Source: Chiloscyllium plagiosum (Eukaryota). From it: a DNA stretch of 49,430 nucleotides. The stretch is taken from the NCBI RefSeq assembly GCF_004010195.1, contig NC_057718.1:45919240-45968669 (forward strand), written 5' to 3'. The notes beneath the pieces were generated by a model. The model did no database searches. It was not told where the DNA came from and saw only the letters and a program-made list of their open reading frames with translations. Positions 970 through 48,599 of the stretch are shown piece by piece; the stretch's first letter is position 1, and the number at the start of each line of letters is the position of its first letter. The translations under genes and the position numbers were made by a program.

Positions 970-1237
970 AGACAGTAATAATGCTATTAACCAGAGACCC
1001 AGTTATGGTAGATAACGAGGTATGGCAACTGGTGGAACGTAAATGCAATTAAGAAAATCTGAAATTGAAAGCTAGTATAAGTAATGATGATCAACAAACC
1101 ATCATCAATTGTAATAAAAACTTATTAGGTTCACTGATTCTCTAGAAGGAAATAAATCTGTTGACTTTACCTGGTTAAGTCTGTATATGACTCCAATTCC
1201 ACTGCATTGTGGGTGACTCTAACTATTCTCTAAGATG
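970..1237 (+). mobile_element. Old degraded SINE-like repeat, interrupted by the PLE composite (resumes at ~2793)
   Basis: GGTTCACTGATT...AAATCTG...TACCTGG...GACTCCA...GTGACTCT block resembles a common old elasmobranch SINE (from memory). Confidence 0.5.
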
Positions 1238-1513
1238 AGAAAGTGAGGTCTGCAGATGCTGGAGATCAGAGCTGGAAATGTGTTGCTGGAAAAGCGCAGC
1301 AGGTCAGGCAGCATCCAGGGAACAGGAGAATCGACGTTTCGGGCATAAGCCCTTCTTCAGGAATGGGGAAAGTTTGTCCAGCAGGCTAAGATAAAAGGTA
1401 GGGAGGAAGGACTTGGGGGAGGGGCGTCGGAAATGTGATAGGTGGAAAGAGGTCAAGGTGAGGGTGAAAGGTCAGACTGGGGTGGGGGCGGAGAGGGCGG
1501 GAAGAAGATTGCA

Positions 1514-2163
1514 AACTCCTCCTTGTGAACCTCAATCTTGTCTCGTCTGGTAGCCTGTATCTCAGTATTTACCTTGCCAACATTGTCTTTTTCTAGTGTG
1601 AATACTGATGAAAAATATTTTTTTAGCGCTTCCCCTATCTCCTCTGACTCCACGCACAACTTCCCACTACTATCCTTGATTGGCCCTAATCTTTCTGTAG
1701 TGATTCTTTTATTCCAGATATACCGATAGAAAGCCTTATGGTTTTCCTTGATCCTGTCTGCCAATGACTTGTCATATCTCCTCCTGGCTCCTCTTAACTG
1801 TTTCTTTAGGTGTTTCCTGATTAACCTGTAACTCTCAAGTGCCCTACCTGAGCCTTTATATCTCATCCTCCATAGGCCTTCTTCCTCTTGACTAGAGATT
1901 CACATTCTTTAGTAAACCAGGGCTCCCTTGCTTGACCACTTCCTCCCTGCCTGACAAGTACACATTTAACAAGGACCTGCAGTAGCTGTTTCTCGAATAA
2001 GCTCCACATTTCAATTGTGCCCATTCCCTGCAGTTCCCTTTCCCATCCTACGCATCCTAAATCTTGCCTTGCAACATAATTGCCTTTACCCCAGTTATAA
2101 TTCTTGCCCCGCGGTATATATCTATCCCTTTCCATCGCTAAAGTAAACATAGCCGAATTGTGG
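1514..2163 (-). mobile_element. Internal CR1/HER1 ORF2 fragment (endonuclease-RT linker)
   Basis: ORFs 1863-2186 and 1453-1866: NWGKGNY...EPWFTKE...IKENHKAFYRYI...GPIKDSSG...YFSSVFT. Confidence 0.9.
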
Positions 2164-2682
2164 TTAGGAAACCAACCTGCATGCACTGGACAAAAACTGA
2201 CCCATCTAAAGCACCCGGGGGAAGAAGATTGCAGGTTAGGAAGGCGGTGCTGGATTTGATGGATTTGACTGAGACAGGCTGGGGGGAGGGGGAATGAGGA
2301 AACTGGTGGAATCCGAGTTCATCCCTTGTGGTTGGAGGGTTCCTAGCCGGAAGATGAGGCGTTCTTCCTCCAACCGTGGTTTTGTTGTGGTCTGACGATG
2401 GAGGAGTCCAAAGACCTGCATATCCTTGGAGTGGGAGGGGGAATTGAAATGTTGAGCTACAGGGTGGTTGGGTTGGTTGGTCCGGGTGTCCCAGAGGAGT
2501 CAAATCCATCAAATTCAGCATCGCCTTCCTAACCTGAGATCTTCTTCCCGACCTCTCCGCCCCCACCCCAGTCTGATCTATCACCCTCACCTTGACCTCT
2601 TTCCACCTATCACATTTCCGATGCCCCTCTCCCAAGTCCCTCCTCCCTACCTTTTATCTTAGCCTGCTGGACAAACTTTCCC

Positions 2683-2722
2683 CATTCCTGAAGAAGGGCT
2701 TATGCCCGAAACGTCGATTCTC
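2683..2722 (+). ncRNA. Minimal type I hammerhead ribozyme motif (PLE family A); antisense copy at ~1328-1366
   Basis: CTGAAGA-A-GGGC TTAT GCCC-GAAAC-GTC: conserved core boxes, 4-bp stem II, palindromic ACGT helix III; helix I pairing is weak. Confidence 0.7.
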
Positions 2723-2945
2723 CTGTTCCCTGGATGCTGCCTGACCTGCTGCGCTTTTCCAGCAACACATTTCCAGCTTATTCTCTAAGATGGCCTGATA
2801 CAGCAAAGCAGTTTCCAATGCAACAACTGCTGACCTTACCATCAAAACCCACATCTCATCAAACAGAAATAAAATCTGCAACATATTATTTTATTTAAAA
2901 TAAGCTACTTAAGTTGATTTCAGAATCTTTCTAAGTTGTGCCAAG

Positions 2946-3162
2946 AGCTGTCATATTACCTGGAGATTAATGAACAAACGGGCTTTTTTTTAATGTTTTT
3001 TGACATATGAATGTAAGATATAGCATAAGATTCAAATTATTACAGCCCATAGTGAGAGTAAAAAATATGTCTGACTATTGTTTCCTTTTAATGTTTTGAT
3101 CCCAGTCTTATCTTTGTCAAGATATTTAGAATAGTGCAGGATATGGAAATCTTCAATGCAGC
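2946..3162 (+). repeat. ~210-bp diverged direct repeat, copy 1 (copy 2 at 5224-5424)
   Basis: Shared blocks CTGGAGATTAATGAACAAAC, ATTACAGCCCATAGTGAGAGTAAA, CAGGATATGGAAA.CTTCAATGCAGC. Confidence 0.9.
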
Positions 3163-4987
3163 CATTCAAGGCTGTCATTTATACATATCTTGTTCAATTG
3201 ACTAGCAGTGTCCTACAACATTGATGGTGATGATTCACATTCCCTCCGGTATCTTCCTGCAAGAAGAGTTCTGGAAAAAACTTTCAGAACATGGAAGTCT
3301 AAATTTTGATATCAATCTTGAAAATAATTTGGAAAGGATATAAGGAACGTGAGAGAGATATAGGGGATGTAATTGAAGCTTGGGGTAATGGTCATCTACA
3401 GGACAATGTGGATTTTGATCCGTGCTGCTCAGGAATGTAAGAGGGATGTTAAGTATTGTTCCAATGCAGAAGTAGTATTCAAGTATTAATCATGTGCAAA
3501 CTTTACCAAGTTGAAAAGTACTGAAGGGAGAGATGTAATTTGGTTTAAAACTGATAAAAACAGGCACTTTTCTAAGTGCAGTTTAATCAATGAAAAGAAT
3601 TGTGAAATCCAATGAAGGCAGAGTAGATGGTGAAGTCAAAATGCTAATAAATTAAGAAGACTAAGCCTAAATATAACATGAAATGTAAGTTACTAATTAG
3701 AATTATGAGAGATATGAAGATTAAAAAAGAATATAACATTTCACTACCCATTCAAAAACCAGAGAGAAATGAATGAATTCTTCAATAAGAAATAAATTCA
3801 ACCACTACACTAAAGCTGAATGTAGATTGCATGCACTCAGGGTATACAATCAAACAGAAATTAATACAGTTCAAATTATCACTAGTAGAATGATAAATGG
3901 AGAAAGAAGTTGATACAAAAGCGAAACAGAGTGGAAGAGAAGAAAAAAACAGTAGGCAACCTCTGAGTGAGCAGAAAATGTGTCCAAGGATGAGCTATCA
4001 CACACTGATTTAAAAGCAAAATAACATGGTGAGCAATTGATAGAACCATGGAATTGTAACAGCACAGAAAGAGGCCAGACACCTGCAATGTCTCTTGATC
4101 TTTGAAAATGCTACTTAGCTAGTTCTACTCTTCTTTCTTTTCTCATAGTTCAGTAAATCTTTTCTTTTTAGATAATTAATCAGTTGTGATAATTAAACCT
4201 GCCATCATGATACTCATAGGCACTGCAATTCAGATCACATTCTGTAAAAACGTTGTCCCTTGTGTTGCCTCCTGTTCTTTTGCCAACCATGTTAATTAGT
4301 GTCCTTTGATTATTCCTGTACTCGCTATGGAAACAGTTTTTCGCTATCTATTACAATAATGGGCAAACTCAAAGAAGAACGTGGTCAGAACCTTCACTCA
4401 CTGATGACAGTAGCTTACCACCAAGAGCTCATTCTCAATTTTGGGTTCACATTTCAGAATCTGTCCTAAACCAGGCAAGCCAAAGATGTAAGACATATGC
4501 CTATCTCACAAAGAAAACCTACAGAGATACCTTCAATTCTTCAACTTGCTGAATAAATAATTCTGGCCTTTTGGCAAACTATCATCATTTAGACAGTGCT
4601 GAAAGAAAGATGTATCATATGCATGTCTGAGGTAGTATCAACATATGTTCAAATCTCTCAAACAAGTGTTGCCAGTGGGAACTATTGACTGGAGATCTGG
4701 TGGAGAGTGGAAAGACAGTGAATTGCTAAGAGAGGAGCATCAGACAGACCAGGAGTTGAAAAGATGCACAAGGAGGATGTGTTTTGTAAATAAGAGTGAT
4801 GTCACAGGGATGGGGATCCAGCAGGAGGTGAATGCAACCTTGGCAAGTAAGACCAGATGAATATTTCGACTGTCCACTTTAATACTTCCAAATAGCAATT
4901 GGTCTTTAGTATAGATTAAGAATGTTTAAAGTACAGAAAATAAGGTAATGTCACTGGTGCATATAGTTTAATATTCCTTTAACTAAA

Positions 4988-5092
4988 AGAAGGATATGGG
5001 CTGGGTGCAGGTAGGTGGGACGAGACTGAGTTGTGATATTTGGTAGGCATGGACAGGTTGGACCGAAGGATCTGTTTCCATGCTGTACATCT
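4988..5092 (+). mobile_element. Short CR1 3' UTR fragment
   Basis: Aligns by eye to 565-665 (GCATGGACAGGTTGGACCGAAG...CATGCTGTACATCT). Confidence 0.85.
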
Positions 5093-5223
5093 TTAATAAA
5101 AAAGAAAGAGCGTAATTAAAGGCTAAGTCTTGGCAAGGCAATTTGACACAGTGGAATTCTCCCCCTTTGGACAGTCAGGAGCACATCCACTGTCCTGGTG
5201 GACCACATGCAAGAAATATCTCC

Positions 5224-5424
5224 AGCTGTTGTATTAGCTGGAGATTAATGAACAAACAGGTAAATTTTATGTTTCCTGGTATATGAATTTAGGATACTGC
5301 ATACGATTCAAAGCATTACAGCCCATAGTGAGAGTAAAGAGTGTCTGCCTATTGTTTCCTTTCAATGTTTTGATCTTTGTAAAGACTCTTGAATAGTACA
5401 GGATATGGAAACCTTCAATGCAGC
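5224..5424 (+). repeat. ~200-bp diverged direct repeat, copy 2
   Basis: See 2946-3162. Confidence 0.9.
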
Positions 5425-5569
5425 TCCTGGAAATCTGTACTTTGGAGTTCAAATGGTAGCTGGAGCCAGTTTGGAGTATCAGTAAGGCTGAGATCTTCAT
5501 GTGTAGCACATACAGTGAGCTGGTTGCACTGCACATAAAAATTGAACAGGCAAGCTGGGAGAAGGACCC

Positions 5570-6150
5570 AAGCTTCAGAGTGAAGGGATGACCATTTAGA
5601 ACTGAGATGAGGAGGAATTTTCTCAGCCAGAGTATGGCTAATCTTTGGCATTCATTGCCATAGAGGTTGTGGAATCCAAGTTATTGAGTGTCTTTAAGAC
5701 AGCGATAGATAGGTTCTTGATTTATAAAGGGATCCAGGGTTATGGAGAGAAGGCAGAAGAATGAGGTTGAGAAACACGGGGCGGCACGGTGGCACAGTGG
5801 TTAGCGCTGCTGCCTCACAGCGCCGGAGACCGGGGTTCAATTCCCGACTCAGGCGACTGACTGTGTGGAGTTTGCATGTTCTCCCTGTGTCTGCGTGGGT
5901 TTCCTCCGGGTGCTCCGGTTTCCTCCCACAGTCCAAAGATGTGCAGCTCAGGTGAATTGGCCATGCTAAATTGCCCGTAGTGTTAGGTAAGGGGTAAATG
6001 TAGGGATATGGGTGGGTTGCGCTTCGGCGGGTCGGTGTGGACTTGTTGGGCCGAAGGGCCTGTTTCCACACTGTGATGTAATCTAAACATATCAGCCATG
6101 ATTGAATGGTAGAACAGAATTGCTGGAGCAAATGGTCTAATTCAGCTCCT
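5570..6150 (+). mobile_element. CR1 3' end (second subfamily) interrupted by a SINE
   Basis: TTTAGAACTGAGATGAGGAGGAATTTT...GATAGATAGGTTCTTGATT...ATCAGCCATGATTGAATGG. Confidence 0.8.
5778..6084 (+). mobile_element. HE1-like tRNA-derived V-SINE
   Basis: A box TGGCACAGTGG, B box GGTTCAATTCC, V-domain TGTGTGGAGTTTGCATGTTCTCCC...GGGTTTCCTCCGGG; short TSD AAACA. Confidence 0.92.
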
Positions 6151-6159
6151 AAAACTGGG

Positions 6160-6935
6160 TCTTTTGGCCCAACTTATCCATGCCGACCAGGTTTCCTAAA
6201 CTGAACTAGTCTCATTTTCCTGCATTCAGCTCATATCCCTCTAAACCTTTCCTATTCATGTACCTATGTAAATGTCTTTTAAATGTTGCTATTGTACCCA
6301 CCTCTACCACTTCCTCTGGCAACTCATTCCATATATGTATCATCCTCTGTGGGAAAACCTGCCCCTCAGGTCCCTTTTAAATCATTCCTCACTCACCTTA
6401 AACCTATGTCCTCTAGCTTTGGACTCCTCTATCTTGGTGAAAACATCTTGGCTATTCAACATATCTATGCCCCTCATGATTTTATAAACCTGTATAAGGA
6501 ACCTCTCAGCCTCCTATAGTCCAGGGAAAAAAGTCCCAGCCTATCCAGCCTCTTTTTATAACTCAAACCCTCCTGTCTCGGTAAATCCCTATAAATCTTT
6601 TTTGCACCCTTTCCAATTTAATAACATCCTTCCTATAGCAGGACAATCATAATGATATGCAGTACTCCAAATGTGGCCATACCAATGTTTGTACAGCTGC
6701 AACATGATGTCCCAACTCCAGTACTCTGACCAATGAAGGCAAGCATGCCAAACGCTTTCTTCACCATCCTGTCTACCTGTGATGCCACTTTCAAGGAACT
6801 ATATACATGCATGCACCTCTAGATCTCTGATCAACAACACTCCCCAAGGCCCTGTGTGAGTCCTGCCCGGGTTTAGCTTACCAAACTGCAATACCTCGCA
6901 TTTATCTGAATTAAACGTCACCTGCAAGTCCTTGA
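6160..6935 (-). mobile_element. CR1 LINE 3' fragment, degraded
   Basis: Reverse complement similar to 1-650. Confidence 0.88.
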
Positions 6936-8142
6936 TTCATATGTCATGGGTGACTACCAGACAGAATAAAAGCACAAGGCAGGTAGTGCAGCATTCACCT
7001 TGGGCCATCTCCCTCTCAAACAGATTATTTTTGGAGTTGAGAGAGTAAGGGGTTCAATGGATGTAGTGAAGAAAAAACTTACATCTCGTATAACAGTACA
7101 GCATAATGAAATAAGTGAGAAGAGTCCTTAACCAAGATCATTGACATGAGATTTAGAGACTAAGTGAGCAAAGAGTGTCAGCTTCTTTCATTCAGACTGC
7201 TTCCATTTCTACAAAGATAGATAGAAAAGATGATTCATAGAAGTCATGAAAGATGATTTTGGGCAAGAAACCAGAAGGAATGGTTTCTGAATGCTCTGCT
7301 TCTTTTCAGTTCAGTTGCTTCTGCCAGCTGTAATATTAAATCAAAAAAGAGTAGGAATCAGAGATAAAGCTGGTTGTGATGCCAGGTGCAATAGGCTGAA
7401 TTCTTATGAGAAAAATCTGAACAGAGGCATGATTGAACCCAAACACAACAAAGGAAAGATAAAGTAAGAAACCTTTGATGCCAGCTAACTTTCTATCAGT
7501 TATTTTGCTGGCATATTTGGAAGGATCAGAAGAGCACAAACTGTATTTGGTTGATGAAGAATAAAATAATTCCATAGCTAACTCAAGAGTCTTGATTTTG
7601 CATAACATTCCTGCCTGCATAGAGCATTGCTGGGCATAAGCATAGAACAAAAAACTGGCTGCAGCAGTGTTTTGCAATCCAGGCTACGTTGCTGTGCATG
7701 CAAGTTTCATTTTACCTTCACACTTTAATAAGACGAGGCCATGCAAAATTATGTAAATTAACGGTAATTATGGGACTAGCAAATTTTAAATTCTGTCATC
7801 TGATTGCTGTACCCAAGATCTTTCATAGACTAAAATGAATTTTACAAAGGAAAATCGTGGACCTAAAATGGCTGCAGTAGTCACCTGATCACAGATTCAG
7901 GCACAGATTCGGGAACTTGTGCAATAAATGAGCTATCTTTCCTGAAATTATCATTTTTATTTAAAAACATCAAAGTCAGGCAGCTGAGTCAGCACCAAGA
8001 AATTCAGATCTATTTATTGAGAGGTGAAGGGCCTACCATCCAATTAGCTAGATTGAAAGGCAATTGAGTTAGACTCTAGAACATACACTGAACTATATTT
8101 CAACAGCTGCTTTTGAAGTGCACAGCAGAGAGAAGCGAAAAT

Positions 8143-8326
8143 CAAAGTTTGTGAGAAGATTTGTAGCTCGGGTGCTCATTGTTGTGGTTCTGTTCACCGA
8201 GCTGGGAATTTGTGTTGCAGACGTTTCATCCCCTGTGTAGGTGACATCCTCAGTGCTTAGGAGCCTCCTGTGAAGCGCTTCTGTGATGTTTCCTCCGGCA
8301 TTTATAGTGGTTTGTCTCTGCCACTT
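8143..8326 (-). mobile_element. PLE family B 3' terminus including tail
   Basis: Reverse complement of ~45130-45315. Confidence 0.88.
8217..8258 (-). ncRNA. Minimal hammerhead motif (PLE family B)
   Basis: Minus strand AAGCA-CTGAGGA-T-GTCACCT ACAC AGGGGAT-GAAAC-GTC-TGC; GCA/TGC helix I. Confidence 0.65.
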
Positions 8327-8589
8327 ACACTTGAGCTGGACTTGGCCATCATTTGCTGATGAGGAATTTCATAGAAAATCCCTGAACAACTAGTTGTTCA
8401 ATTGTTCGCCACTATGTGTTTCATGGAGGCGCTGATGTGATGGCACTGATAGTAAACAATTTGTTTGTACTGAAATGTGATATAATCTTGCAATAATTTG
8501 ATAACGTGAAAAGTGTTGATCTACCATCCAGGAGAGTGATGTCTTCAGGTTGTCGAGTGAATAACTGAAGAATACTGGTGAGAAAGTGA

Positions 8590-9322
8590 AGAGGTAAATG
8601 AGGGTAGGACTTAAACAGTTAATGGTATGGCCTTGGGGAGTATAGTCGAACAGAGGGACCTAGCGGTGCAGGTTCATAGTTTCTTGAAAGTGGCGTTGCA
8701 TGTAGACAAGGTGGTGAAGAAAGTGTTTGACATGTTTGTCTTTATTGGTCAGAACATTGAGTATGGGAGTTGGGGCGTCACATTACAGGTGTACAGGACA
8801 TTGGTTTGGCCACTTTTAGAATACTGTGTACAATTCTGATCGTCCTGCTATACGATTGATATTGTTAAACTCAAAAGGATACAGAAAACAATTTACAAGA
8901 ATGTTGCCATTCTTGAGGGTTTGACTTATATGGAGAGGCTGGATGGGCTGGGACATTTTTCCCTGAAGCATCAGAGGCTGAGGCCCAATAGAGGTTTACA
9001 AAATTATGGTGGGCATAGATAAGGTGAATAGCCAAGGCCTTTTTCCAAGGGTAGGGGAGTTGAAAACTAGAGGGCAGAGGTTTAAGGTGAGAGGGGAAAG
9101 ATTTAAAAGGGACCTATGAAGCAACCTTTTCACAGTGAGGGTGCATGGAATGAGCTGCCAGAGGAAGTGGGTACAATTACAATGTTTAGAAGACATTTGG
9201 ATATGTACATGAATAGGAAAGGTTTGAAGGGATATGGGCCAAATGCAGGCAAAGGGACTAGTTAAGTTCAGCAATCCTGGTTGGCATGAATAAGTTGGAT
9301 AGTCTATTTCTGTGCTGTATGA
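8590..9322 (+). mobile_element. CR1 LINE 3' fragment inside the PLE-bracketed cargo
   Basis: ORF 8627-8839 EQRDLAVQVHS...YRTLVWPLLEYCVQF; the 3' UTR resembles 300-660. Confidence 0.9.
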
Positions 9323-10901
9323 GACGCCGAGTTTTATCAGGGATTTGTCTTCAATTTAAAACTGCATTACAATTTCTCTTTCCTATCAGACATACATCAG
9401 ATGTGCACAATCTTAACTCAATTCTCAGAAGTTCTCCAAGCACAGAACTGAATAATTCACTTAACTGGTAGATAATCTAGTCGTTTACTGACTATGAATA
9501 ATATCACAATGATGCGGTGGTTTCGATACTCTACACATGTCACAGGTGACGAAGTATCTTATTAAGAAAAAGGATGTTTGCATTAGAAAAATTCCTGAGG
9601 ACGTGGCTTTCAAGGGTGTGTCCCACTGCAGGATATTCGAAAATATATCATGCCTGTGACAGAAAATTACAACATTTTGAGCCTGACTGCTAACAAGCTG
9701 ACCTCCAACTCTCCAATAATCCTGTCGGAAACTTCTCTTGACATCAAACAACATTCTGACCATTCGCTGAGAAGGCATAAGATTTACAAATATTTGTTTA
9801 GATTAGAGTCATAATCCAGGCTTCAGAGTAACTCTTGAATACATAAAACTCACAGATGTTGTTATCTGTTGTTGCCCAACTTGTCCTATAAATAGAGCAT
9901 ACTCTGCAATAAGGAAACAGTTCTGGAATACATATGATGTTTGAGCTAATGTACAGAGGTCACCTATTCTGTATCTAAAGCACCTGTAGACATTGATATT
10001 AAAGTGAAGGAGATTGGAAATAGGACAGGATCACTTGATCTAATAAATGCATTTCTCAATCCAACCTCTCCACAGTGCTCTCTCTCCTTTCTGTCTGAAT
10101 TAACAGACTCTTTGGGGAGGAAAGTTTATGTTGCATAATTAAAACATTGTAAAACAATTTCCACTTCACTAAAGCTCTGTATAGTGCAAGTTGGCACTCA
10201 GAGTATCTGTGGAATTCAGCACTTAGATTGCTTATAGAAGACAGCACTATACTACTTGGGTTTGTTACTGCAAGGCTTATAACAATAACACAGTGTCAGT
10301 CTTTTTAAATCAGTCAGAGAGTCTCTTGAACTGAGCACATTTTAGAGGCTTATGTTGAGTTGATTTAAATGTTTAGGACATGGGAGAATTGTACACTTGA
10401 TCTCCAACACTAAAATTTTGATGACTAGGATAGAACTCTTGCAGAAGGGACAAATCACAACTGATTGGAATTCCAATTGGAGATAAAAAAATTAAATCAG
10501 AAACTGTCTGGAATGGAACAATATCAGATGAGTTGCTATAGTATAAATGAACTGTTGAATTGATCATCTTAGCAATAGAATTTTTCAAAAATATAGAATT
10601 GCATGGAGAATTATAGAATGACACAGTCACATCATTGTTATAGTACAGAAAGAAACCACTTGGCCTGTTGTTTTTGCAAATAAGCAACACACCTGATGCC
10701 CATCCCATGCCTTCTCCCTGTAACTCTGCACTTTCTTTTTTTAGATCATAATTCAAATCCCCTATGAATGCCTCAATCAAAACTACCTCCAAAACAGGCT
10801 CAGGCAGTGCATTCCAAACTTTAATGCCTTGCTGCATGAAAACGTTTGTTAATTTCATTTCCCACTTTTCTCTAAAATCTTTTGGAAGTAATTCTGATCA
10901 A

Positions 10902-11193
10902 TGTTGTGGTTCTGTTCGCCGAACTGGGAATTTGTGTTGCAGATGTTTCGTCCCCTGTCTAGGTGACATCCTCAGTGCTTGGGAGCCTCCTGTGAAGCGC
11001 TTCTGTGATGTTTGTGATGTTTTTTATAGTGGTTTGTCTCTGCCGCTTCCGGTTGTCAGTTCCAGCTGTCCGTTGCAGTGGTTGGTATATTGGGTATATT
11101 GGGTTGGTATATGTGCTTCTTGATTGAATCTGTGGATGAGTGCCATGCCTCTAGGAATTCCCTGGCTGTTCTCTGTTTAGCTTGTCCTATAAT
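10902..11193 (-). mobile_element. PLE family B fragment (end of GIY-YIG region + terminal repeat lacking tail), with HHR motif
   Basis: Similar to 44347-44632; same orientation as 8143-8326. Confidence 0.88.
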
Positions 11194-12339
11194 AGAAGCG
11201 AAAATGTATTTGTGTCAACAAGACCTGGAACTCTCTCCCTTTCTCTACCTATCACTCTCCCTGTCTTTCTGATTATCTCAAACAATAGTAAAGAAATAAT
11301 CAACTATGGTCCTCACTTTTAAAATCAAACATCTCAGGACCCAAGAACTCATAAATTGCAAAGCTTTGTTTCCACCTCTCTGTATCACTCTTAAGTCTTA
11401 ATCTACCACCTATGTTTGATATCACTTTTAAAAATTTTCCTTGGTATTAAAAGATAATAAAATTCTTATTTCTTTCACAGAAGGAAATCATGTTAATTGG
11501 CTCTTTCACTTTCTCATGAACCGTGTTTAAATTGAAGTGTGAAAGCTGCATTCTTAAAATATATTTTTTAAAAGTATTGCGACAGACCATAAGGAGTTTT
11601 GAAAGGATGGTGGTGGGTGCTATAATTTGTTCTCCTCATCTGACCAGTATTTAAATATTTTAAGCTGCAGACCACAGCAAGTGACAGTCAGTCCTATCTA
11701 TGGTAACATGTCCTAATAACTGCATCACCAACTTCCCACACCAGCTCAATTCACACAGCTCTTTTACCTACCAACGATCTCCATCAATCAGGACTCAGAC
11801 CTAATGCTTATATACTTCAGTACACACTCACACACTTAGCACTTTTGTATATGCCTCAGATCCTCATCATATATTTTGTACACACTGCCAGCTACACCAT
11901 GAGAGCTACCTCAGCCAAAAACATTGAACTACACTCATCAACTTGTTTCCTCCCCATCGTGGAAAATGTGGCACAAAGCTGGAGAAGCAAAAGCAAAGCC
12001 AGAACGGGAAAGATGTACCTGCATGTCCTTATATCTATTGAGGAAGCAATATTGTTTGCCTATTTTTCTCAGTCACTCAATGGAGATGTTGATTCTTGTA
12101 GAGGTCTGGTACCATCGGTAATAGCAGTACAGTGTTTGAATTTCAGATCTACATTGAAATAGTACTACACTGAACAGTACCTTCATTCATTAGAAAAGAC
12201 AATCTGTTAAAAAGAATCTTGTATCCGTATGTATATAACATTTTTGCATTTTAAGATCCGATAGCTACCTTTGAAATGGTACCAGAAATTTGGAACGTCA
12301 GTTGAGTTGGGGGGATAAAAAAAGTTCTTTAGAACACAG

Positions 12340-16735: not shown

Positions 16736-16990
16736 AATGGAAGCCTTATATGAGACAGAAAAGAGATGGAGTGGTTTAGAGAACTTAGTCATGGGGAGAG
16801 GGAAATTCTGATCTGTGAAACGGGTTTAAGTATTTAGTGGACATCATGATGACTGCTGCTTCCTATCTCCTAGATTTGGAGGAAGGCTGGGCGTACTTGA
16901 TCTCTGGATGATTTTCCTTCTTTCACCTTTTGACCATTTTTTCTTGTGGCTGTCAGTTGAAACCTGGCAGTAGAGCCCAGTACACAAGAG

Positions 16991-17413
16991 GAGAAAGTGA
17001 GGACTGCAGATGCTGGAGATCAGAGCTGAAAATGTGTTGCTGGAAAAGCGCAGCAGGTCAGGCAGCATCCAAGGAGCAGGAGAATCGACGTTTCGGGCAT
17101 AAGCCTCACTGATTTCAAGGTAGGCACTTCTGGTTTTGCAGTATGCAACATACCACAATAGATTTGCATCCTTTGGATGAGTCATACTTTAATACTTCTC
17201 TATGACACTGAAATTGTTGCTTGAAAAGAATGTTCATTTGCTCTGTAATGAATTGCATTGCTTTGTGTGCTTGATTGTACTTGCATTCTGCTGACACCTG
17301 TGGGTTCTGCAATGATTCTTCATTCCTGAAGAAGGGCTTATGCCCGAAACGTCGATTCTCCTGCTCCTTGGATGCTGCCTGACCTGCTGCGCTTTTCCAG
17401 CAACACATTTTCA
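16991..17413. mobile_element. PLE family A inverted termini enclosing a 212-bp inverted copy of 18232-18443
   Basis: TSD CCCAGT(A/G)CACAAGAG at 16976-16990 and 17415-17429; the overlapping parts of the arms are identical; intact HHR core at 17326-17353. Confidence 0.92.
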
Positions 17414-18231
17414 TCCCAGTGCACAAGAGAAAAGTGACGAGTTCTACCATTAGAATGAGATGGTATTGTGGGATCTTCTCATTCTCCAGCAAACTCCATT
17501 CTTCTCTTTCAAGCTCTATTGTTTAATTTTCCACACTTCAGACCTGTCAGAATTCTCTCATCTATCAAGAGCCAATGATACATATGTAATGAGCTTCACT
17601 GCAGGTAAATGGGATGTGGAATGTATAAAATGGAGAACAGAACTCCTGCCCCATCAGACATGCAGCACAAGGAAAAAAATCCCCTTTTTAAATATTATGT
17701 CTGACCTGTCAAAGAACAATGTCTATGGATGTTCAGACATTTGTGGGAGATAATGATATGAGTGTGACTTTAACTGCATTTCTTATGGCTGTGAAAGTGA
17801 TAGCAGTCATTAATTTTCTCAATCTTATTCACTTCAATCCCCAAATGATTCTTTGCATTGGCAATGGCCACTAGCAATGATTAAATGCCCGATACCTCAT
17901 TCTAGAAACCCTATCCTTTTAGAACAAAGTGACAAGAAACAGCAACAATCCAATGCTCTTGCTGGCTTCCCCACTGTTTTGCCAAATATATGCATGTACA
18001 GATCGTTACTGATCATCAAATTAATGGTGCATATCATCTATGCAAGCTTTCATTCCTTAATTTGCAGGTGATCTGTGCTAAAAAAAAATAACTTTGTGGC
18101 GAAGGCAGGGTCAACTCTGACTGCTTCATCCTTACCAGTTTAGTGCGCTTGGATGCTTAAATGGGCTACTTGGTTGCAAGGCTGTCTTTAGGGAAATTAT
18201 TACTATGGTTCGCAACCATGACTCATAACCC

Positions 18232-18443
18232 CATTGCAGAACCCACAGGTGTCAGCAGAATGCAAGTACAATCAAGCACACAAAGCAATGCAATTCATTA
18301 CAGAGCAAATGAACATTCTTTTCAAGCAACAATTTCAGTGTCATAGAGAAGTATTAAAGTATGACTCATCCAAAGGATGCAAATCTATTGTGGTATGTTG
18401 CATAGTGCAAAACCAGAAGTGCCTACCTTGAAATCAGTGAGGC
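18232..18443 (+). repeat. Donor of the inverted copy at 17103-17314
   Basis: One mismatch seen in 212 bp; the ORF track shows the near-identical peptide on opposite strands. Confidence 0.95.
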
Positions 18444-23326: not shown

Positions 23327-23419
23327 CACCTGATAAAGAGCACATGCCTGAAATGTCGATTCTCCTGCTCCTTGGATGCTGCCTGAGCTGCTGTGCTTTT
23401 CCAGCACCACACTCTCGAC
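23327..23419 (+). mobile_element. Solo PLE (family A-related) terminal fragment starting at a decayed HHR
   Basis: GTCGATTCTCCTGCTCCTTGGATGCTGCCTGA; TSD TCTGTTCCTT at 23317-23326 and 23420-23429. Confidence 0.85.
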
Positions 23420-25250: not shown

Positions 25251-26827
25251 CATCACTGTCACCATTCCCTTAGTAATCCATTGCAATGAACCCCATGCCC
25301 AGTCTTAATTTTCCCACTTCTATCTGGAATCCACTTCTGTGCCCTGACTATTACTAAGCAAACCTCCAGAACTGTCTCGACAGAACAGCCACGATTAACC
25401 ACAGCCCTTTGCCAGACTAATGTCCCAATAGCACCTCAACAGACCTGTAATATTGAATATTGCTGAGTATCGCACGGTTAACCCACTTGGTTTAAAATTT
25501 AAACAAAGTCTGGCAATTAGCTGTCAATTGTCATTGATTATTGCATATCCTTTGGCTAAACTTCTACCAATCAGAATCCACATTTGCAAACCAATCTTGG
25601 TTAGTTTCTATGAAATGAATGTTGGTTTCCTCTTGAATTGGTATTCCTGTAAATTCTCCTGATGAGTGCAAGGTGAACAATTTTCACAAAATGTGTATTT
25701 TTTCAGCATAATTCAAGTTCTGTATTACCACTTGACTATTTATATATCTTTGAATTGGTTGCGCTTGACCTGCAGAACTGACTGTGGCCCAAATCCCAAA
25801 TTGCAAGTATACAGATCCCCAGACTCTGGGAATGCTTGACTGATAGCGGCCAGCCATTGCATTGGCATTAGATGAGCCACTTGACTGAAAGTTATTGTAT
25901 TCCCTGATTGACCATAGTCTCCCTTCAACCCTACAAATAAATCCTCCCTTTCAACTTTCAGTCATGGTCACTTGCTTCAAGCAAATATTTGCCAAGTTAA
26001 CTACTGGCCCATAATGCAGATATGATGTTAATGCAGTAAGATGCCAGACAGTGACATGTGTATCCTGTGAACTGTTCAATATTCTCCAACTTAACAAGCA
26101 GCCTGCCTCTCCCTCTTCTCCAAAAAAGTAACATAAATCACAGATACTGACAGCTTGTAACAGAGCACTGAAGACCCTGTGCTCTAAGAAAGCAATGTGA
26201 GCCACGCAGAGGTGGGCACCTGGTAAGTCAGTGCTGAATTCAGTGAGAGTGCACTCAGAAAGCAATGTGAGGTATACAGAGGCTGAGAGGCTCCAAGTAA
26301 ACATGATGTGAGTCATAACATGCAGATGCATGAGATGCATGTGTATCTCTCTTCATGTAAGATCATCTGCAGAAGCATGTAACTGATAGGTGTTGCAGAG
26401 CAACAAAGGGAATGAAGAAGGGTTATGCGAGTTGAATTTGGGGCAGACATGATGATGTCGTGAAGCTGGCGGTTTGCTGATGTGTCGGTGCAGATTTGCG
26501 TGAATGAACTGTCCAGCAGAAAGGTATCCATGGACCATGCAGGGATGTAGTTGTAAAGAAGCACTTGGATGATAACCAAGTTTACCCAGTTTACCCAGCT
26601 ACTCCATCACTGTATTCCTGCATGCTCCACAAGTACCAGTCTCTTCCACCTTCATGTACATAAGAGAAATTATCAAACTGGCAGCCTCAGAATATCACCC
26701 CAGTGCTTTTGGACCAACTCTCACATCACAGCAGCCCCCTTACAGACCTTACTTCAGAGCTTACAGTCAGTTAGGCCTTGCATGCTTCTACCTTGTGTTT
26801 TTGCACACGTGGACACAAATGTATGTT

Positions 26828-26911
26828 GAAAATGTGTTGCTGGAAAAGCGCAGCAGGTCAGGCAGCATCCAAGGAACAGGAGAATCGACGTTTCGGGCAT
26901 AAGCCCTGTGA
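26828..26911 (-). mobile_element. Solo 84-bp PLE family A fragment
   Basis: 13-bp TSD ACAAATGTATGTT at 26815-26827 and 26912-26924. Confidence 0.92.
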
Positions 26912-28849
26912 ACAAATGTATGTTCACAGGATGACGCATATGTCTTCTAGCTTGCTTTCTTAGAGTTGGCATTTACTATGTGGCTGGTGGCATTTTGCAG
27001 CTTGCATTTCTGTTCAGTGCAAGCTGGCAGCTTATAGCAGTTGCAAGTCCTGAACAGTCAAGAGGCTGGATATGTTTCTGTATGCATGGTGCTATCTCAG
27101 TGTTACACTTACAACACATACCAGCAGCTTCCACAACCATCACACTGCATGTGCTTCAACCAAATGTCCATGTCTGAAAGTCAAAGTCCTTCTGGAGTCG
27201 AGGGGGACTATGTCATTTGAGGATTGCTACCATGCTCAGTGCAGGGGCTCATCCTATCTCAATCCAATGGGTTTGCCACAGTCAGGCATATCATTGGTCT
27301 TACTAGAGTTCAGAAGTCAATGCCTTTGAAGACCAGGAACTGGGTAATGGTCAGTTCTGTAGGTCTAGTGCAACTAGTTCATGGATCACAGGAATGTCAG
27401 GTGGGCGCTATGGTGACATCCATCTGAGGCTACATCATGTGCGGTCAGGACTGTTCTCCCAGGTCAGTCCAGGAGCTGGGCCAAGATCAGTCCTGTGGGT
27501 CAAGGTATTAATGGTCACAGGGTGCATCAGGAGGTCTCCATACACTCCTGTGGAAAACGAGGTGCTCAAGTTGGGTGTTTGGCTCATTGAACTGGGTTAT
27601 TGAGGGAATTATAATGGTCATAGGGACAATTCCAGAGAGAAGGGTGGAGTCTCATAGTGCACAGGAGGGAACTTTTAAACAGTTTTCAATCAACCTAGCC
27701 TCCATATGAGGAGAATGAATAGCCAACAAATACATGGCCATTTGCAAAGGCATTAAAAGTATTATAAAGGGGCTGAATGGAAAGGGGAGGAGGCTCAAAG
27801 TGACTAAAAGTGACATAGGGCTGTAACACAACAGAAAATGTGAAGGTTGGGGAGATCATTAATTGTCTCTCACAGGGACACAAAATTCAACCAGAGCATA
27901 ACCTCTGTTCTCCATTTTGAATATAGCCCTTTAATCGTAACTATGCCATCATCGCATCAAAGTTAGCTACCCAGAAAAAGAGACAAAGTAGCTGCTGCTG
28001 CATGTAGAGTAAGTGGAGTAAGTCTTTCTCTTCAGTAGTGTAGTATGATGATTGTGTGTGAGTCACTGTGTGGGGCAATTGTATGAATCATGCATCCACT
28101 GGTTCAGTAACGCCACCCGTCTGCCATTAAATTGGATTCAATTGAAAAGTCATTCTTTCGGCAACTATAGACATTGCAAATTGAGACCTCAAGCAATCAA
28201 TATCATGAAATACTTTGCATTAATTAGCCCTGCCATCATGTCAGATAGACAATGCTATGCAGAAGCACACTTTACCACTTCACCCGACTTTACCATTTCT
28301 GCATTGATTTTCTTATCAGACATCGGAAAACCATGCTTTGGAACTGCAACATTTCACACCAAACTGCATGTATGTGACATTCATGGGTGATTTTTGTTCT
28401 TGGGTGGAGACGCAGTCACAGCAGAGAAGTGCTTGCATTTAACTCACCCAATGTAGCGTTTGTAATTTGGTTCAGCAACATTTATCTGCATTGGGTTTCA
28501 GAGCTCAGAGTTTCAAATCAAGGCATGGCATCAGCCTCCTTGTAAAGATAAAGCCTCCATGTCACAATGTGTGAGTCCATAAGATGTTGTTTAATTGTGC
28601 TTGATGTTAGGAATCTGGAAAAGTCCAGCTGACATGCTGTTCTGTTTCTGACATCTTCCACAGATTATCTGCTCCCTGAATTGAGATGAAACCAGCTCTC
28701 AGAAGTTACTTTGTGGCTTTGTTAACTATGAGATTCCAGCATTAAAGAAGACTTCAATTGGAAGACCAGCAACAAGAGGAGCCTCCAGAGGCTGTCATAC
28801 TGGATGGAGAGAGACAGCTGAAGATCAACCAAGAGGAAGATGAGAGTGA

Positions 28850-32705: not shown

Positions 32706-32710
32706 CAATT

Positions 32711-39027: not shown

Positions 39028-39160
39028 GAGAGTCATACAGCATGGAAACAGGCCCTTCAATTCAACACATCCCTGCCAACCAGGTTTCCTAAACTGAACT
39101 AGACCCATTTGCTGGCATTTGGCCCATATCCCTCTAAACCTTTTCTATCCATGCACCTCA
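39028..39160 (-). mobile_element. CR1 extreme 3' end fragment
   Basis: GAGTCATACAGCATGGAAACAGGCCC...CCCATATCCCTCTAAACC. Confidence 0.85.
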
Positions 39161-44076: not shown

Positions 44077-44160
44077 GGCGTGGTGCTGTGTGAAGCACAG
44101 CAGGTCAGGCAGCATCTGAGTAGCAGGAGAATCGACGTTTTGGGCATAAGCACTTTCACC
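44077..44160 (-). mobile_element. Solo PLE family A-related fragment
   Basis: CAGCAGGTCAGGCAGCATCTGAG..GCAGGAGAATCGACGTTT; TSD TTGTTT(T)CCAAGA. Confidence 0.85.
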
Positions 44161-44346
44161 TTGTTTTCCAAGAAGAAATGCATGTAAAAATAACTGTTTG
44201 TGATCCTTAGAGGAGGGTGAATTTACAATATAATGCGTTATGCAGAGTATTGAAATTTTTAAATTAATTTATTTTGAAATTTTGGTTATGCATATTAATT
44301 CTTAATGTTAGAGGGAGAGAAGGAAATCTGTTAATTGTATATTAAT

Positions 44347-45315
44347 TGTTGTAGTTCTGTTCGCCGAGCTGGGAATTTGTGTTGCAGACATTTTGTCCCC
44401 TGTCTAGGTGACATCTTCAGTGCTTGTGACCCTCCTGTGAAGCGCCTCTGTGATCTTTCCTCCGGCATTTGTAGTCGTTTGAATCTGCCGCTTCCGGTTG
44501 TCAGTTTCAGCTGTCCGTTGCAGTGGTTGATATATTGGGTCTAGGTCAATGTGCATATTGATTGAATCTGTGGATGAGTGTCATGCCTCTAGGAATTCCC
44601 TGGCTGTTCTCTGTTTGGCTTGTCCTATAATAGTAGTGTTGTCCCAGTCGAATTCATGTTGCTTGTCGTCTGTGTGTGTGGCTACTAAGGATAGCTGGTC
44701 GTGTCGTTCATGGCTAGTTGGTGTTCATGGATGCAGATCGTTAGCTGTCTTCCTGTTTGTCCTATGTAGTGTTTTGTACAGTCCTTGCATGGGATTTTGT
44801 ACACTACATTTTGTTCAATGTAGTGTACAAAATCCCATGCAAGGACTGTACAAAACACTACATAGGACAAACAGGAAGACAGCTAACGATCCGCATCCAT
44901 GAACACCAACTAGCCACGAACGACACTTCCAGCTATCCTTAGTAACCACACACACAGATGACAAGCAACATGAATTCGACTGGGACAACACTACTATTAT
45001 AGGACAAGCCAAACAGAGAACAGCCAGGGAATTCCTAGAGGCCTGGAACTCATCCACAGATTCAATCAATAAGCATGTCGATCTGGACCCGATATACCGA
45101 CACTGCAACTGACAGCTGGAACTGACAACTGGAAGCGGCAGATTCAAACCACTATAAATGCCGGAGGAAACATCACAGAAGCACTTCACAGGAGGCTTCC
45201 AAGCACTGAGGATGTCACCTAGACAGGGGACAAAATGTCTGCAACACAAATTCCCAGCTCGGCGAACAGAACCACAACAACGAGCACCCGAGCTACAAAT
45301 CTTCTCACAAACTTT
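44347..45315. mobile_element. PLE family B fold-back (palindromic) insertion encoding a GIY-YIG endonuclease fragment
   Basis: NVVYKIPCKDCTKHYIGQTGR GIY-YIG motif on both strands; arms 44347-44810 and 44817-45280; TSD TATTAATTGT at 44340-44349 and 45319-45328. Confidence 0.93.
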
Positions 45316-45793
45316 TTTTATTAATTGTACCATAGTGGTGGGTATTAACTGGGGATTCACTCAGGTCCCCATAAATAGGTACAGATTAAACTGTGATGGT
45401 TGGGGTTAGGAGATCTGTGCTTGTAATTTTAAGTCTAGAAGACAAAAGTAAACACTTGTATAGATTAGTTCCAATTGTGTCCTTCACACATATCAACTTT
45501 CTATAGAAACATAGATAATAGGAGCTGGAGTAGGCCATTCAGTCCTTCGAGCCTGTGTTGCCATTCAATATGTTCATGGTTGATCATCCAACTCAATACC
45601 CTGTTCCTGCTTTCTCTCTGTACCATTTAGTCTCTAAAAAACATAGCTAACTCCTTCTTGAAAACATTCAATGTTTTGGCCTCCATTGCTTTCTGTAGCA
45701 GAGAATTACATAGGCTCATCATTCTCTGGATGAAGAAATGTATTTGCATCTCATACCTAAGTGGCCTAGCCTGTATCCTTAGGCTCTGGTTTT

Positions 45794-45929
45794 TAGATCA
45801 GAGTGGTGCTGGAAAAGCACAGCAGGTCAGGCAGCATCCGAGGAGCAGGAAAATCGAAGTTTCGGGCTTTTCCAGCACCACTCTGATCTGAACTCTGGTT
45901 TCCAGCATTTTGAGTCCTCACTTTTGCCT
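45794..45929. mobile_element. Small fold-back PLE (family A-related) without cargo
   Basis: AGATCAGAGTGGTGCTGGAAAAGC inverted at 45866-45889; TSD TTAGGCTCT at 45779-45787 and 45932-45940. Confidence 0.85.
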
Positions 45930-47020
45930 CTTTAGGCTCTTGTTCCGAGTCCGGACTCACTGGTCATTGAGAACATCCTTCTTCCATTTTCTCTGTCCGG
46001 TTCTGTTAGAATTTTATAAATTGAACTCCAGTGAATATCATCCGAAATGATCCAATTTCTTTTTAGACATCCTCTGACCATCCCAGGAATCAGTCTGGTG
46101 ACTTTGTTGCATTCCCTCCAAAGTCAGAACATCCTGATTCAAATAAGGAGACCGACCTGCACACAATACTCCAAGTCTGATCCCACCAAGGCCCTGCACA
46201 ATTCCAGCAAGACATCCCTGCTCCTATTCTTGAATCTTCTCACTATGAAGGCCAACATGCCTTTCGCTTTCATTACCACTTGCTGAATCTGCACACTTGG
46301 CTTCAGTGACTGGTGTATAAGGACACCCAGGTCTCATGGTACTTCTCCCTTTCCTAATCTATCGGCATGCAGATAATAATCTTTCTTCCTGTTTTTTATA
46401 TACCAAAGCAGATAACCTCACATTTATCGGCCATGTTTTGCTCATTCAATTGACTTGTCCACACTATACTGAAGTATCTCTGCATCCTCCTCAGTTCACT
46501 CTCCACCCTGCTTTGTGTTGTCTGCAAACTTGAAGATATTATGTTTACTCACCTCATCTAAATCTTTAATAGAGAACATGAATAGTTGGGGTCCAAGCAC
46601 TGATCCCTGCACTACCCCACTAGTCACTGCCTGCCATTTTGAAAAAGACCTGTTTATTTGTATTTCGTTGTTTCTTGTCTGCCAGCCACTTCTGTATTCA
46701 AGTCAGAGTGCTACCTGATTCCATGCACTTTAACCTTACAAGCTAATATCCTATATGGAACCTTATCAAAAGACTTCTGAGTAAACCACATCCACGAGCT
46801 CCTCCTTGACAATTCTACTAGTTATAGCCTCAAAAAATGCCAGTAGATTCATCAAGCACAATTTGCTTTTTGTAAATCCATGCTGACTCTGTCTGATCCT
46901 GCCATTGTTTTCCAAGTGTTTTTCTATTAGTTTATTTATAATAGACTGTAGTATTTCAGTTTCTATCAGTTAGGATATCAGTTTCTATGCTGTCTTATTT
47001 TCTGTCTAACTCCTTTTTTT

Positions 47021-47307
47021 CAAAGTCAGAAATCACACAACACCAGCTTATAGCCCAACAGGTTTATTTGAAATCACAGGTTTTTGGAGCACTGCCAAGG
47101 GAGAAGTACCATGAGACCTGGGTGTCCTTATACACCAGTCACTGAAGCCAAGTGTGCAGATTCAGCAAGTGGTAATGAAAGCGAAAGGCATGTTGGCCTT
47201 CATAGTGAGAAGATTCAAGAATAGGAGCAGGGATGTCTTGCTGGAATTGTGCAGCACTGTGACTTCCGACTTTGCCCACCCCAGTCCAACACAGGAACTT
47301 CCACATC
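47021..47307. mobile_element. PLE family C inverted termini enclosing a 158-bp inverted copy of 46194-46351
   Basis: Left arm CAAAGTCAGAAATCACA... versus right arm TGTGACTTCCGACTTTG + tail; TSD TCC(T6-7)CAAA at 47011-47024 and 47306-47318. Confidence 0.82.
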
Positions 47308-48599
47308 CTTTTTTCAAATAGTGGGGTTATGTTAGGTTCCCTCCAGTCTATATAAACTGTTCCAGAGTCTTTAGAATCTTGAAAGATAGCCATCAATGCA
47401 TCCACTATTGCTAGGCCCATGTTTTTGTTGCCACTCCTGGAATAGAAATTGGGAACTTATAGCTGATGAGACAGCACTTGACTGGTCTTTTATGAGATCC
47501 AGCCAGATCCAGTGGTGGAAAGCTAAACCAGTTGTCCAATATATCCTTTCAAATCTAAACTTAAGGGAATACAGATGAGGGTAATAGAAGAGGGAATCAG
47601 TGAGGGTAAAAGAGAATATTACTGAGGATGTACAGATCTAATGTAGAAGAGGGTGTGGCTGAACAAATCTGTAGCTGCAGAAATGCTGTGGCAAATGGCA
47701 GAGGGAAAGATCAGTAAAAGAAAACTGCAGTAATCATTGGAGATAAATGTATTGGTCATGCTGGAGCTCCACTTCGAAACACCAAAAATAGGTCAGGCCA
47801 GTGTGTATCATTCACAAGTTTTACTGGATTTTTCCATTCTTGGACAGGATGAAAGGATACACAATTAGGATTGGACAGTGCAGTTTTGTGTGAACTGGTA
47901 GATAGCTTTTCCTTAGAGCGGATGTAGAGGAGGTTGTGTTGGAAATTGAAAGGGATGGAGGGAAAAGCGATAAAAGAACCGGATCAGAGATGGGTTATGT
48001 ATGATTGATGCCATGGGATTTGTGTATTGAGGTGGTAAAATTCAGGTTAACGACAGATTTCAGATTCGTTTCATTCATATCAGCGACAGAAATGATTCGC
48101 AGCATCAGTTTTAGCACTGTGCAGTATTCCATTAGCAATAAAGCTCATGAACCTACTCCCATTCATAACCAATCCCTGCATTATCAAATACAACTGTTTT
48201 TTGCAATGCAACTTAAAATTTGACTGCCAAGCCCACAGAATATGAATTTACTTTACAGATGTAAGTGTGATATTTTAACAAAGGCTTTTCCAAAATCAAT
48301 CTATGCTGTGAAGTGCAGCAGACCTAGACTTGCATCAGTAAGTCAGATTTTTATTCAATGGTGCTCTGCAGAGTTGAATATCCCAGAGTGTTTTGTGTCT
48401 GTCCATTTGATTACCCAGTGGAAGACCTCCAGGGCAAATTTTATGTAAGCCTGGAATAATCCGCTGTAGTTTTTCAAAAATTAGATTTAGCTTTTGAGAA
48501 GCTTGGTCTTGGATAAAATTTGCAACAGGCCTGTAAGAGAAACTGATGAAGAGAAAGATAAAAGTCAGACTGTTGCGGGGATATATACTTGTCTTTTTG

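Follow-up and report, generated by a model that had tools for sequence, protein, structure and literature searches.

Composite PLE insertions in the window

The analyzed window is a stretch of 49,430 nt of Chiloscyllium plagiosum (NC_057718.1, positions 45,919,240 to 45,968,669, forward strand). It contains nine insertions of Penelope-like elements (PLE) bounded by target site duplications (TSD): five of them carry cargo, which is local in three. Three PLE families are involved, as the first-pass annotation had proposed; they are designated A, B and C, labels specific to this analysis. Pseudo-LTR (pLTR) arms, a tail at one end and TSD of 9-18 bp are present, as in endonuclease-bearing PLE, which have direct or inverted pLTR and a one-sided tail of 30-40 bp. 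The family-A ORF (L036) has a Pfam match to GIY-YIG (E 3.5e-4; 21.2 bits, just below the cut-off of 22.6), the one family-B fragment scanned gave no Pfam match, and a YIG motif is visible by eye in the translations of A, of B and of an ORF beside a family-C end. Judged from these translations, the elements are putative GIY-YIG-bearing PLE; their ORF fragments also contain what we take to be an RT-like motif. A pattern presumed to represent the hammerhead core gave five matches in the window, all within A and B arms, for 0.99 expected, which may correspond to a putative ribozyme; an Rfam search extended to E = 1 did not return a hammerhead. The only Rfam matches, under gathering scores, concern a palindrome centre at 44.8 kb and are microRNA-hairpin-like. 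Whenever both ends of a two-armed family-A insertion were detected, one arm was tailed and the other tailless (16/16).

The five cargo-bearing composites are each enclosed in a TSD of 12-15 bp, and their coordinates and TSD were borne out (TSD exact for insertions 1, 2 and 4, imperfect for insertions 3 and 5). They fall into two different classes, distal (insertions 1 and 2) and local (insertions 3, 4 and 5). The distal cargos (705 bp and 2568 bp) represent 90% of the total cargo bases and have their donors on other chromosomes. Non-PLE DNA lies between PLE ends within one TSD in insertions 1, 2, 3 and 5; insertion 4 is single-ended. All TSD below are given on the forward strand.

Insertion 1 is flanked by an exact 14-bp TSD (1224..1237 and 2779-2792). 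It is composed of a family-A 3' end with its tail (1238..1513, minus strand), which includes a hammerhead-like core at 1336-1360; the cargo (1514..2218, minus strand); a family-A ORF end (2219..2497, minus strand); and an inverted tailless family-A arm (2498..2778, plus strand). The cargo, presumably an old CR1-type LINE copy, corresponds to the sequence just downstream of a source PLE on another chromosome, at locus C32 in the region 43.257-43.260 Mb (703/705 identical, about 99.7%). No local donor was found within 90 kb on either side. The ORF end is identical to the source only in the 34 bases adjoining the cargo and was thus mostly taken from another family-A copy; likewise, the tailed pLTR that closes the insertion comes from a different PLE copy than the source. 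The cargo is present at about 100% identity in ten genomic places, the source and nine daughters, and is thus common to eight other daughter loci. Eight of the nine daughters were examined: each carries 618-879 flank bases with one or two mismatches, and within the PLE part remains identical to the source over no more than 34-129 bases. Past the daughter-carried stretch the C32 flank is unique (next best match 83%). The source has no 3' pLTR, and an assembly gap separates it from its promoter. A TSD is present in four of the eight daughters; in the other four none was found and the ends are family-B, family-C, LINE or gap sequence, which could be explained by other repair routes.

Insertion 2 (exact 12-bp TSD, 8131..8142 and 11194-11205) begins with a tailed family-B pLTR (8143..8333, minus strand), which is only 94-96% identical to the arms of the source at locus C24 and therefore does not come from it. 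The cargo (8334..10901, minus strand) is the 2.57-kb downstream flank of the C24 source, a hairpin element with its own TSD located on another chromosome, in the region 21.203-21.206 Mb; cargo and adjoining pLTR together are 2718/2726 identical to the source (99.7%), whose TSD is included once in the cargo (10890-10901). A family-B ORF end and tailless pLTR follow (10902..11193, minus strand): 10902-11050 corresponds to the C24 source arm, and for the remainder, up to 11193, the source sequence is missing owing to an assembly gap. In all three traced cases (C32, C24, and C39 to C10) the cargo lies 3' of the PLE ORF, in sense orientation.

Insertion 3 has a 15-bp TSD with one mismatch and an exact part of 8 bp (16976..16990 and 17415-17429). 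Between a tailed family-A arm (16991..17105, minus strand) and a tailless one (17321..17414, plus strand) lies a cargo (17103..17314, plus strand) which overlaps the left arm by 3 bases and is the reverse of 18232-18443 (211/212 identical), on the plus strand 0.8-1.0 kb downstream. A genome search matched only the cargo and this donor. Insertion 5 has the same organization with family-C arms, tailless at 47021..47096 (minus strand) and tailed at 47255..47307 (plus strand). Its TSD is about 13 bp (47011..47024 and 47306-47318), with a T-run of 7 versus 6 and with its final 4 bases overlapping the element end. The cargo (47097..47254, plus strand) is the reverse of 46194-46351 (158/158 identical), a plus-strand donor situated 0.67-0.83 kb upstream within an old LINE copy; the next-best genomic copy is at 85%. 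Insertion 4 (exact 13-bp TSD, 26815..26827 and 26912-26924) is reduced to one PLE end, a single tailless family-A arm with 4 new bases (26828..26911, minus strand). It shows a 10-bp fold-back (26905-26914 versus 26921-26930) that overlaps both element and TSD, so that only these 4 bases are new; a similar inverted match was obtained in 2/2829 random trials, a rough null. The local copy near the break is inverted in 3/3 cases, for which the chance probability is 1 in 8. Junction overlaps of 3 bases occur at one junction each of insertions 3 and 4, and none is clear in insertion 5; at the priming-side junctions predicted by fold-back, no clear microhomology was found in insertions 3 or 5. Polymerase theta snap-backs are short, and 158-212 bases copied from 0.7-1 kb away are long in comparison.

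Cargo and local inverted copies outside the window

Credible local donors were looked for in 52 PLE insertions found likewise in 780 kb outside the window, and none was detected (95% upper bound 6.8%). Local cargo was equally absent from 20 further B and C loci chosen by similarity alone, several of which are not resolvable. The contrast between 3/9 local events in the window and 0/52 outside (p = 0.002) shows that the window is atypical for PLE cargo; selection accounts for this excess, which may also have a local cause. The claim that capture is frequent is thus not supported. Specificity for PLE fares no better: 3 local inverted copies of comparable size and distance, with neither PLE end nor TSD, were found in 229 kb. 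Over the 830 kb searched there are roughly eight local inverted copies of at least 40 bp; two lie between PLE arms, PLE pieces totalling only about 39 kb of this sequence. Older local inverted copies are also present, at 94-97% identity. At C5, an inverted copy of 1433 bp starts within a family-A tail.

Several candidates were rejected. The apparent outside cargos at C15 (2136, 33607, 9026) and at C9 (41377, 142492, 16870) are PLE internal sequence. No local donor was found for stretches of 30 bp at C5 88168, 83 bp at C15 3019 and 100 bp at C9 23710, nor for a call of 5 kb at C1 138233; those at C9 and C1 are probably chance TSD, about 13 false calls being expected among 203 termini. The TSD control with CR1-type LINEs (4/24) and SINEs (5/19) was unusable, with a shifted-position background of about 3.3 each. 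The comparison with CR1 and SINE insertions asked for by the first-pass annotation is therefore answered only indirectly, by a flank test: it gave matches at 2/24 SINE and 3/25 LINE clusters, all of them either of tandem or repeat type or situated within the C5 duplication. The four best conspecific sequencing runs gave a share of 0.83-0.90 and two other species 0.14-0.42; these data are uninformative on junctions, and none of the matching runs is recorded as RNA.

Two probable routes of capture and competing explanations

Insertions 1 and 2 carry the sense downstream flank of a distant source, as expected of 3' transduction, and insertions 3-5 do not. In the former the 3' end is the pLTR and tail of another copy, and not the end of a read-through RNA. 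Judged on these sequences, we regard both as 3' transduction plus template jumping. The first-pass annotation had set the mechanism apart from 3' transduction; this does not hold for these read-through-type transductions of a source's downstream flank from other chromosomes. It had also placed the donor, wherever visible, in neighbouring DNA and in inverted orientation; this is correct inside the window (insertions 3, 4 and 5) but misleading, the donors of insertions 1 and 2 being on other chromosomes. Its proposal that template switching at PLE integration places non-PLE DNA within the TSD is supported. The composites are a mix of two rare by-products of a template-hopping enzyme and not one frequent new mechanism.

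The explanation that we consider probable associates a distal RNA jump (insertions 1 and 2) with local fold-back copying (insertions 3-5). A staggered cut by the PLE endonuclease would generate the TSD of 12-18 bp, and the PLE reverse transcriptase would extend both 3' ends, each on its own RNA, one starting at a tail-including site and the other at a tail-lacking site, which is the pattern seen in the arms. The 16/16 pairing matches the two start sites and the two-strand cleavage and extension described in vitro in the available part of PMC11167929. In most cases the short cDNAs would be joined to each other without further synthesis, which would account for the common head-to-head stub; on rare occasions one cDNA end would first borrow another template. 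In the first route it would jump to the read-through RNA of a PLE elsewhere and copy the downstream flank and then a PLE part, often with a further switch to another PLE RNA; the product would be an element, a flank and a borrowed pLTR with its tail, in agreement with the traced sources and mosaic structures. Since small assembly gaps are many, the mosaic PLE parts could partly reflect assembly mixing. In the second route the cDNA end would fold back onto DNA exposed next to the cut, where a DNA-templated polymerase, either a host end-joining polymerase or the RT, would add 4-212 bases, giving a local inverted copy with the donors and orientation observed. This would be ordinary templated break repair framed by PLE ends, affecting no more than a few per cent of insertions. 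A stronger version appears less likely than not: PLE integration would be obligately two-ended and multi-template, with a different start site and RNA per strand; a short first cDNA would have to jump, any RNA being usable; a PLE end could be appended in trans to a pLTR-less RNA (the C32 source), even across families; and the local inverted class, at a set distance of about 0.7-1.3 kb, would be the DNA-templated version of this jump. Vertebrate PLE would then be source-traceable transducers of host DNA.

All cargo could instead be DNA-templated, a cDNA end invading a homologous PLE copy or nearby DNA for ectopic synthesis-dependent repair, with no read-through RNA. Such a process would cover local and distal cases by a single mechanism; at the source, the cargo is in every case adjacent to PLE sequence, the daughters switch template within PLE homology, and PLE intron retention is noted in the available part of PMC3846280. 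We find it rather unlikely: one source was used nine times among very many homologous copies, which is more easily explained by an abundant RNA than by a homology search at the DNA level, the direction is always 3' sense, and the end points cluster at 618-879 bases. The model in which local DNA is often and specifically copied, inverted, during PLE integration or hairpin repair, by a route separate from transduction, is unlikely, and as the common explanation of all five composites it is already refuted. Insertions 3, 4 and 5 are indeed local and inverted, two of the eight or so local inverted copies lie between PLE arms in spite of the small PLE fraction, and the C5 copy starts within a family-A tail; but insertions 1 and 2 are trans-chromosomal, local cargo is absent from both outside samples, and comparable copies exist without PLE ends. 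Repair of a hairpin intermediate is also contradicted by insertion 1, whose arms differ at 6/240 positions, compared with 2/705 between cargo and source, and hence were not copied one from the other.

Nascent transcripts of the target region might have served as template for the cargo of insertions 3 and 5, reached by the RT jump proposed for the distal class, which would leave a single RNA-jump mechanism. RT jumping is supported for that class, 158-212 bases are compatible with RT runs and the junctions are near-blunt; by itself, however, this model favours neither the inverted orientation nor a donor within about 1 kb, and copies of the same type exist without PLE ends, which makes it very unlikely. 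An assembly artefact, in which short-read gap filling would have put neighbouring or distant sequence between repeat ends, appears highly improbable. The assembly is gapped (2,000-8,000 N per 200 kb), the cargo of insertion 5 matches its donor at 100% identity, and palindromes are described as difficult to assemble in the available part of PMC8557442. Against this, junction TSD are exact at 12-14 bp, cargo and donor differ at 1/212, 2/705 and 8/2726 positions, the older local inverted copies have diverged, and three more daughters have their own TSD.

Relation to known systems

In LINE-1 3' transduction, the flank downstream of a source element is moved to new sites, and the transduction ends in the poly(A) tail of the read-through RNA. 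Insertions 1 and 2 resemble it in the relocated downstream flank and differ in their 3' end, a PLE pLTR and tail from another RNA. A close precedent is Penelope of the rotifer Adineta vaga (Pen1 spacers, Pen3a-NRPS; Arkhipova et al. 2013, PMC3846280): the part of that paper available describes host DNA, within a TSD, between the element and its 3' pLTR or between solo pLTR, with a tail on one arm, and proposes read-through transcripts followed by template jumps. TSD-flanked, pLTR-bracketed host DNA is thus not novel. In the same part of the paper the non-coding spacers have no traced source, and neither a local inverted class nor a frequency is given; in the shark PLE the sources are traced, one of them has nine daughters, and the pLTR that closes the insertion demonstrably derives from another copy. 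What is new here is traceable sources, multi-template mosaics and the tailed/tailless pairing.

In vitro work on the PAc Poseidon element describes a tail defined by two RT start sites lying next to each other, cleavage and extension of both strands of the target, and a predicted dimer (Frangieh et al. 2024, PMC11167929, available in part). The shark PLE would be alike in the start-site pair and in two-strand cleavage and extension; their 16/16 pairing is a genomic counterpart of these start sites which is not reported in the available part of that paper, where template jumps and cargo, unlike here, do not figure either.

Local templated copying is already published for L1 and R2, judging from the accessible parts of the reports: among non-canonical L1 insertions, nine come from two RNAs and three have sequence templated by DNA near the integration site (PMC11702581), and R2/PRINT yields snap-back and extra-template junctions as well as template jumps to other RNAs (PMC11371274). 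In R2/PRINT and in SD-MMEJ snap-back repair (PMC5728401, PMC2943611, likewise in part), as proposed here, the cDNA 3' end serves, ahead of joining, as primer for DNA synthesis templated by cDNA or by target DNA close by; unlike in these accounts, the copy in the shark lies between two independently primed arms and extends over 158-212 bases taken from 0.7-1 kb away. A literature search, with most subscription journals outside its reach, found neither local inverted capture nor source-traced transduction by vertebrate PLE. PMC8557442, in the available part, still describes the transposition cycle of PLE as undefined. Sets of source and daughters such as that of C32 are natural barcodes indicating which template supplied which part of an insertion, so that genome sequence by itself suffices to test strong-stop-and-jump models. 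The local inverted class is of lesser importance, being rare and similar in appearance to general templated repair. The distal class shows that, in a vertebrate, PLE transfer kilobases of host DNA from one chromosome to another.

PLE identity and boundaries of the insertions

The window belongs to a 3.56-Gb assembly (C9:45919240-45968669). The first-pass annotation had described in it five insertions enclosed by target site duplications (TSD), at positions 1238-2778, 8143-11193, 16991-17413, 26828-26911 and 47021-47307 (insertions 1 to 5), and self-comparison and junction search bore these out on the assembled sequence. The involvement of three families of Penelope-like elements (PLE), here called A, B and C, was likewise upheld. 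The assignment is based on YIG-type endonuclease motifs, hammerhead-core matches in the A and B arms (5 observed versus 0.99 expected), tails, inverted arms and TSDs of 9-18 bp. A Pfam GIY-YIG match, a weak one, was obtained for family A only, and an Rfam scan found no hammerhead. Two-armed family-A insertions systematically combine one tailed and one tailless arm (16/16), a pairing that is directly visible. Other repeats of the region are presumably CR1, SINE and Gypsy elements.

Cargo, i.e. non-PLE DNA, is absent from a family-B head-to-head hairpin at 44346-45318 (936-bp arms 92.5% identical, 6-base loop, 10-bp TSD), whose centre resembles a microRNA-like hairpin scoring under the Rfam cut-offs. 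Three older family-A-type stubs (23329-23419, 44080-44155 and 45792-45932; TSDs of 9-10 bp), counted in the window denominator, are also cargo-free.

Sources and donors of the cargo

The observations of the first-pass annotation were largely right and their interpretation partly wrong. The cargo, where its donor was visible, had been described as neighbouring DNA in inverted orientation, which holds for insertions 3, 4 and 5 and fails for insertions 1 and 2. The latter are transductions of flanks of source PLEs on C32 and C24, contrary to the proposal of a capture distinct from 3' transduction.

The unique cargo of insertion 2 has a single other genomic place at 100% identity, on C24, where the source is a family-B hairpin with its own 12-bp TSD. 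Window positions 8325-11050 correspond to the C24 forward arm, the C24 TSD and 2.57 kb of flank (2718/2726 bases identical), and this flank continues further at C24. The closing tailed pLTR (terminal repeat) is only 94-96% identical to both C24 arms and therefore derives from a different B copy. The order element, flank, pLTR plus tail is that of Pen1 in PMC3846280.

Insertion 1 is one member of a transduction family. No donor of its 705-bp cargo was found within 90 kb, and the cargo is present at about 100% identity in ten genomic places. On C32, a family-A ORF breaks off right past its stop codon and lacks a 3' pLTR (L099, C32:43252001-43262000, local positions 4697-7870); an old LINE copy follows. 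Since the continuation of this flank is unique, we consider this locus as the source, with nine daughters. In the eight that were examined, the flank extends over 618-879 bases and has one or two mismatches to the source; because all eight differ from it, the assembly may contain a different allele of the source, or the source may have changed since copying. Identity extends into the PLE part for no more than 34-129 bases, past which the daughters diverge by 3-6% from the source and from one another; the PLE parts are mosaic. In four of the eight (window, C8, C1, C2b) the 3' end is a family-A pLTR, always with a TSD of 13-15 bp. The others end in family B (L103 on C22, 4853-6822), in a LINE piece then family C (L102 on C34, 4458-5990), both unlike their 5' parts, at a LINE 3' end, or in more A sequence reaching a gap; no TSD was found in these four. 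Within insertion 1 the arms mismatch each other at 6/240 bases and the cargo mismatches the source at 2/705. In the C1 daughter, a duplicated 58-base spacer separates the cargo from the pLTR (L037, 2196-2255).

Examination of 12 family-B loci, taken by rank, added a third distal case, in which C10 carries 517 bp identical to part of a family-B ORF on C39 together with its flank; at C10 the TSD is masked by a gap.

The cargo of insertions 3, 4 and 5 is local. The donors of insertions 3 and 5 are inverted, lie 0.67-1.03 kb away and are unique or clearly best in the genome, while insertion 4 is a 10-bp fold-back adding 4 new bases. An inverted copy always joins the donor's near end to the donor-side arm, so this geometry is no evidence beyond orientation.

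Templates and prior reports

We infer an RNA template for the distal class because one source was used repeatedly and the flank invariably lies 3' and in sense (3/3 sources). Both cut ends would be primed, and the resulting short cDNAs would require a partner; cargo could enter before joining, either by a jump to read-through RNA or by fold-back on flanking DNA. Related studies describe two start sites with extension of both strands for a PLE in vitro (PMC11167929), snap-back onto nearby DNA and jumps to other RNAs for R2 (PMC11371274), and locally templated and two-RNA insertions for L1 (PMC11702581). Capture of host DNA between pLTRs, accompanied by TSDs, was already reported in PMC3846280, which proposes read-through and template jumps; passages of PMC2377424 hold nothing further on cargo. 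Our literature search found no report of source-traced or local inverted PLE cases in vertebrates.

Frequency and PLE specificity of local copying

Frequency was surveyed in the 180 kb surrounding the window and in 200 kb on each of C1, C15 and C5. An initial pass yielded 40 TSD-bounded PLE insertions, including two entered by hand. A wider pass yielded 60, of which 8 lie in the window and 52 outside it, and chance may account for some of the single-end calls; counting the B hairpin at 44346, the window has 9. Frequent local copying by PLEs, as initially proposed, is not observed: none of the 52 outside insertions has a credible local donor (longest local matches 18-19 bp; 95% upper bound 6.8%; pooled with the window, 3/61). 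Twenty additional B and C loci of 3-4 kb each, several gapped or without a TSD in range, gave no local non-PLE donor. Short fold-backs like insertion 4 were sought in 10 insertions only, and none but insertion 4 has one of at least 10 bp.

Local inverted copying had also been put forward as a PLE mechanism. An element-blind scan identified such copies without PLE ends or TSDs on C9, C15 and C5. Those of C9 measure 182, 228 and 133 bp (L020 225-1437; C9 region positions 202721-203924 and 213595-214665), with a spacing of 750-850 bp, close to that of insertions 3 and 5; that of C15 measures 48 bp. The C5 copy (L090 5683-8947, C5:40115683-40118947; 1433 bp, 99.8% identical, TSD not found) starts inside a family-A tail and ends on a truncated old LINE, and may be PLE-linked. 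Given these PLE-free copies and the absence of local donors outside (0/52 and 0/20), the window is an extreme case arrived at by selection, and the local class is not specific to PLEs. What gives the findings their value is the transduction family, which can be traced, together with the asymmetry of the arms, rather than frequent local duplication.

TSD-based LINE and SINE controls failed; most young LINE and SINE copies in the survey regions lack detectable TSDs, in contrast to PLEs. Beside one PLE-free C9 inverted copy lies a short direct copy from the same donor. A 153-bp local direct duplication without TSD, separated by 30 bp from the end of an older PLE (L015 3040-4146, C9 region positions 63040-64146), is a possible direct-orientation counterpart of the inverted copies. 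On C15, a family-B hairpin has its own ORF pieces folded back at its centre, followed by a gap and more A and B pieces (L109, C15:50062878-50066678), and at C1:60165313-60166042 a family-A end is directly adjoined by a 72-bp tandem array.
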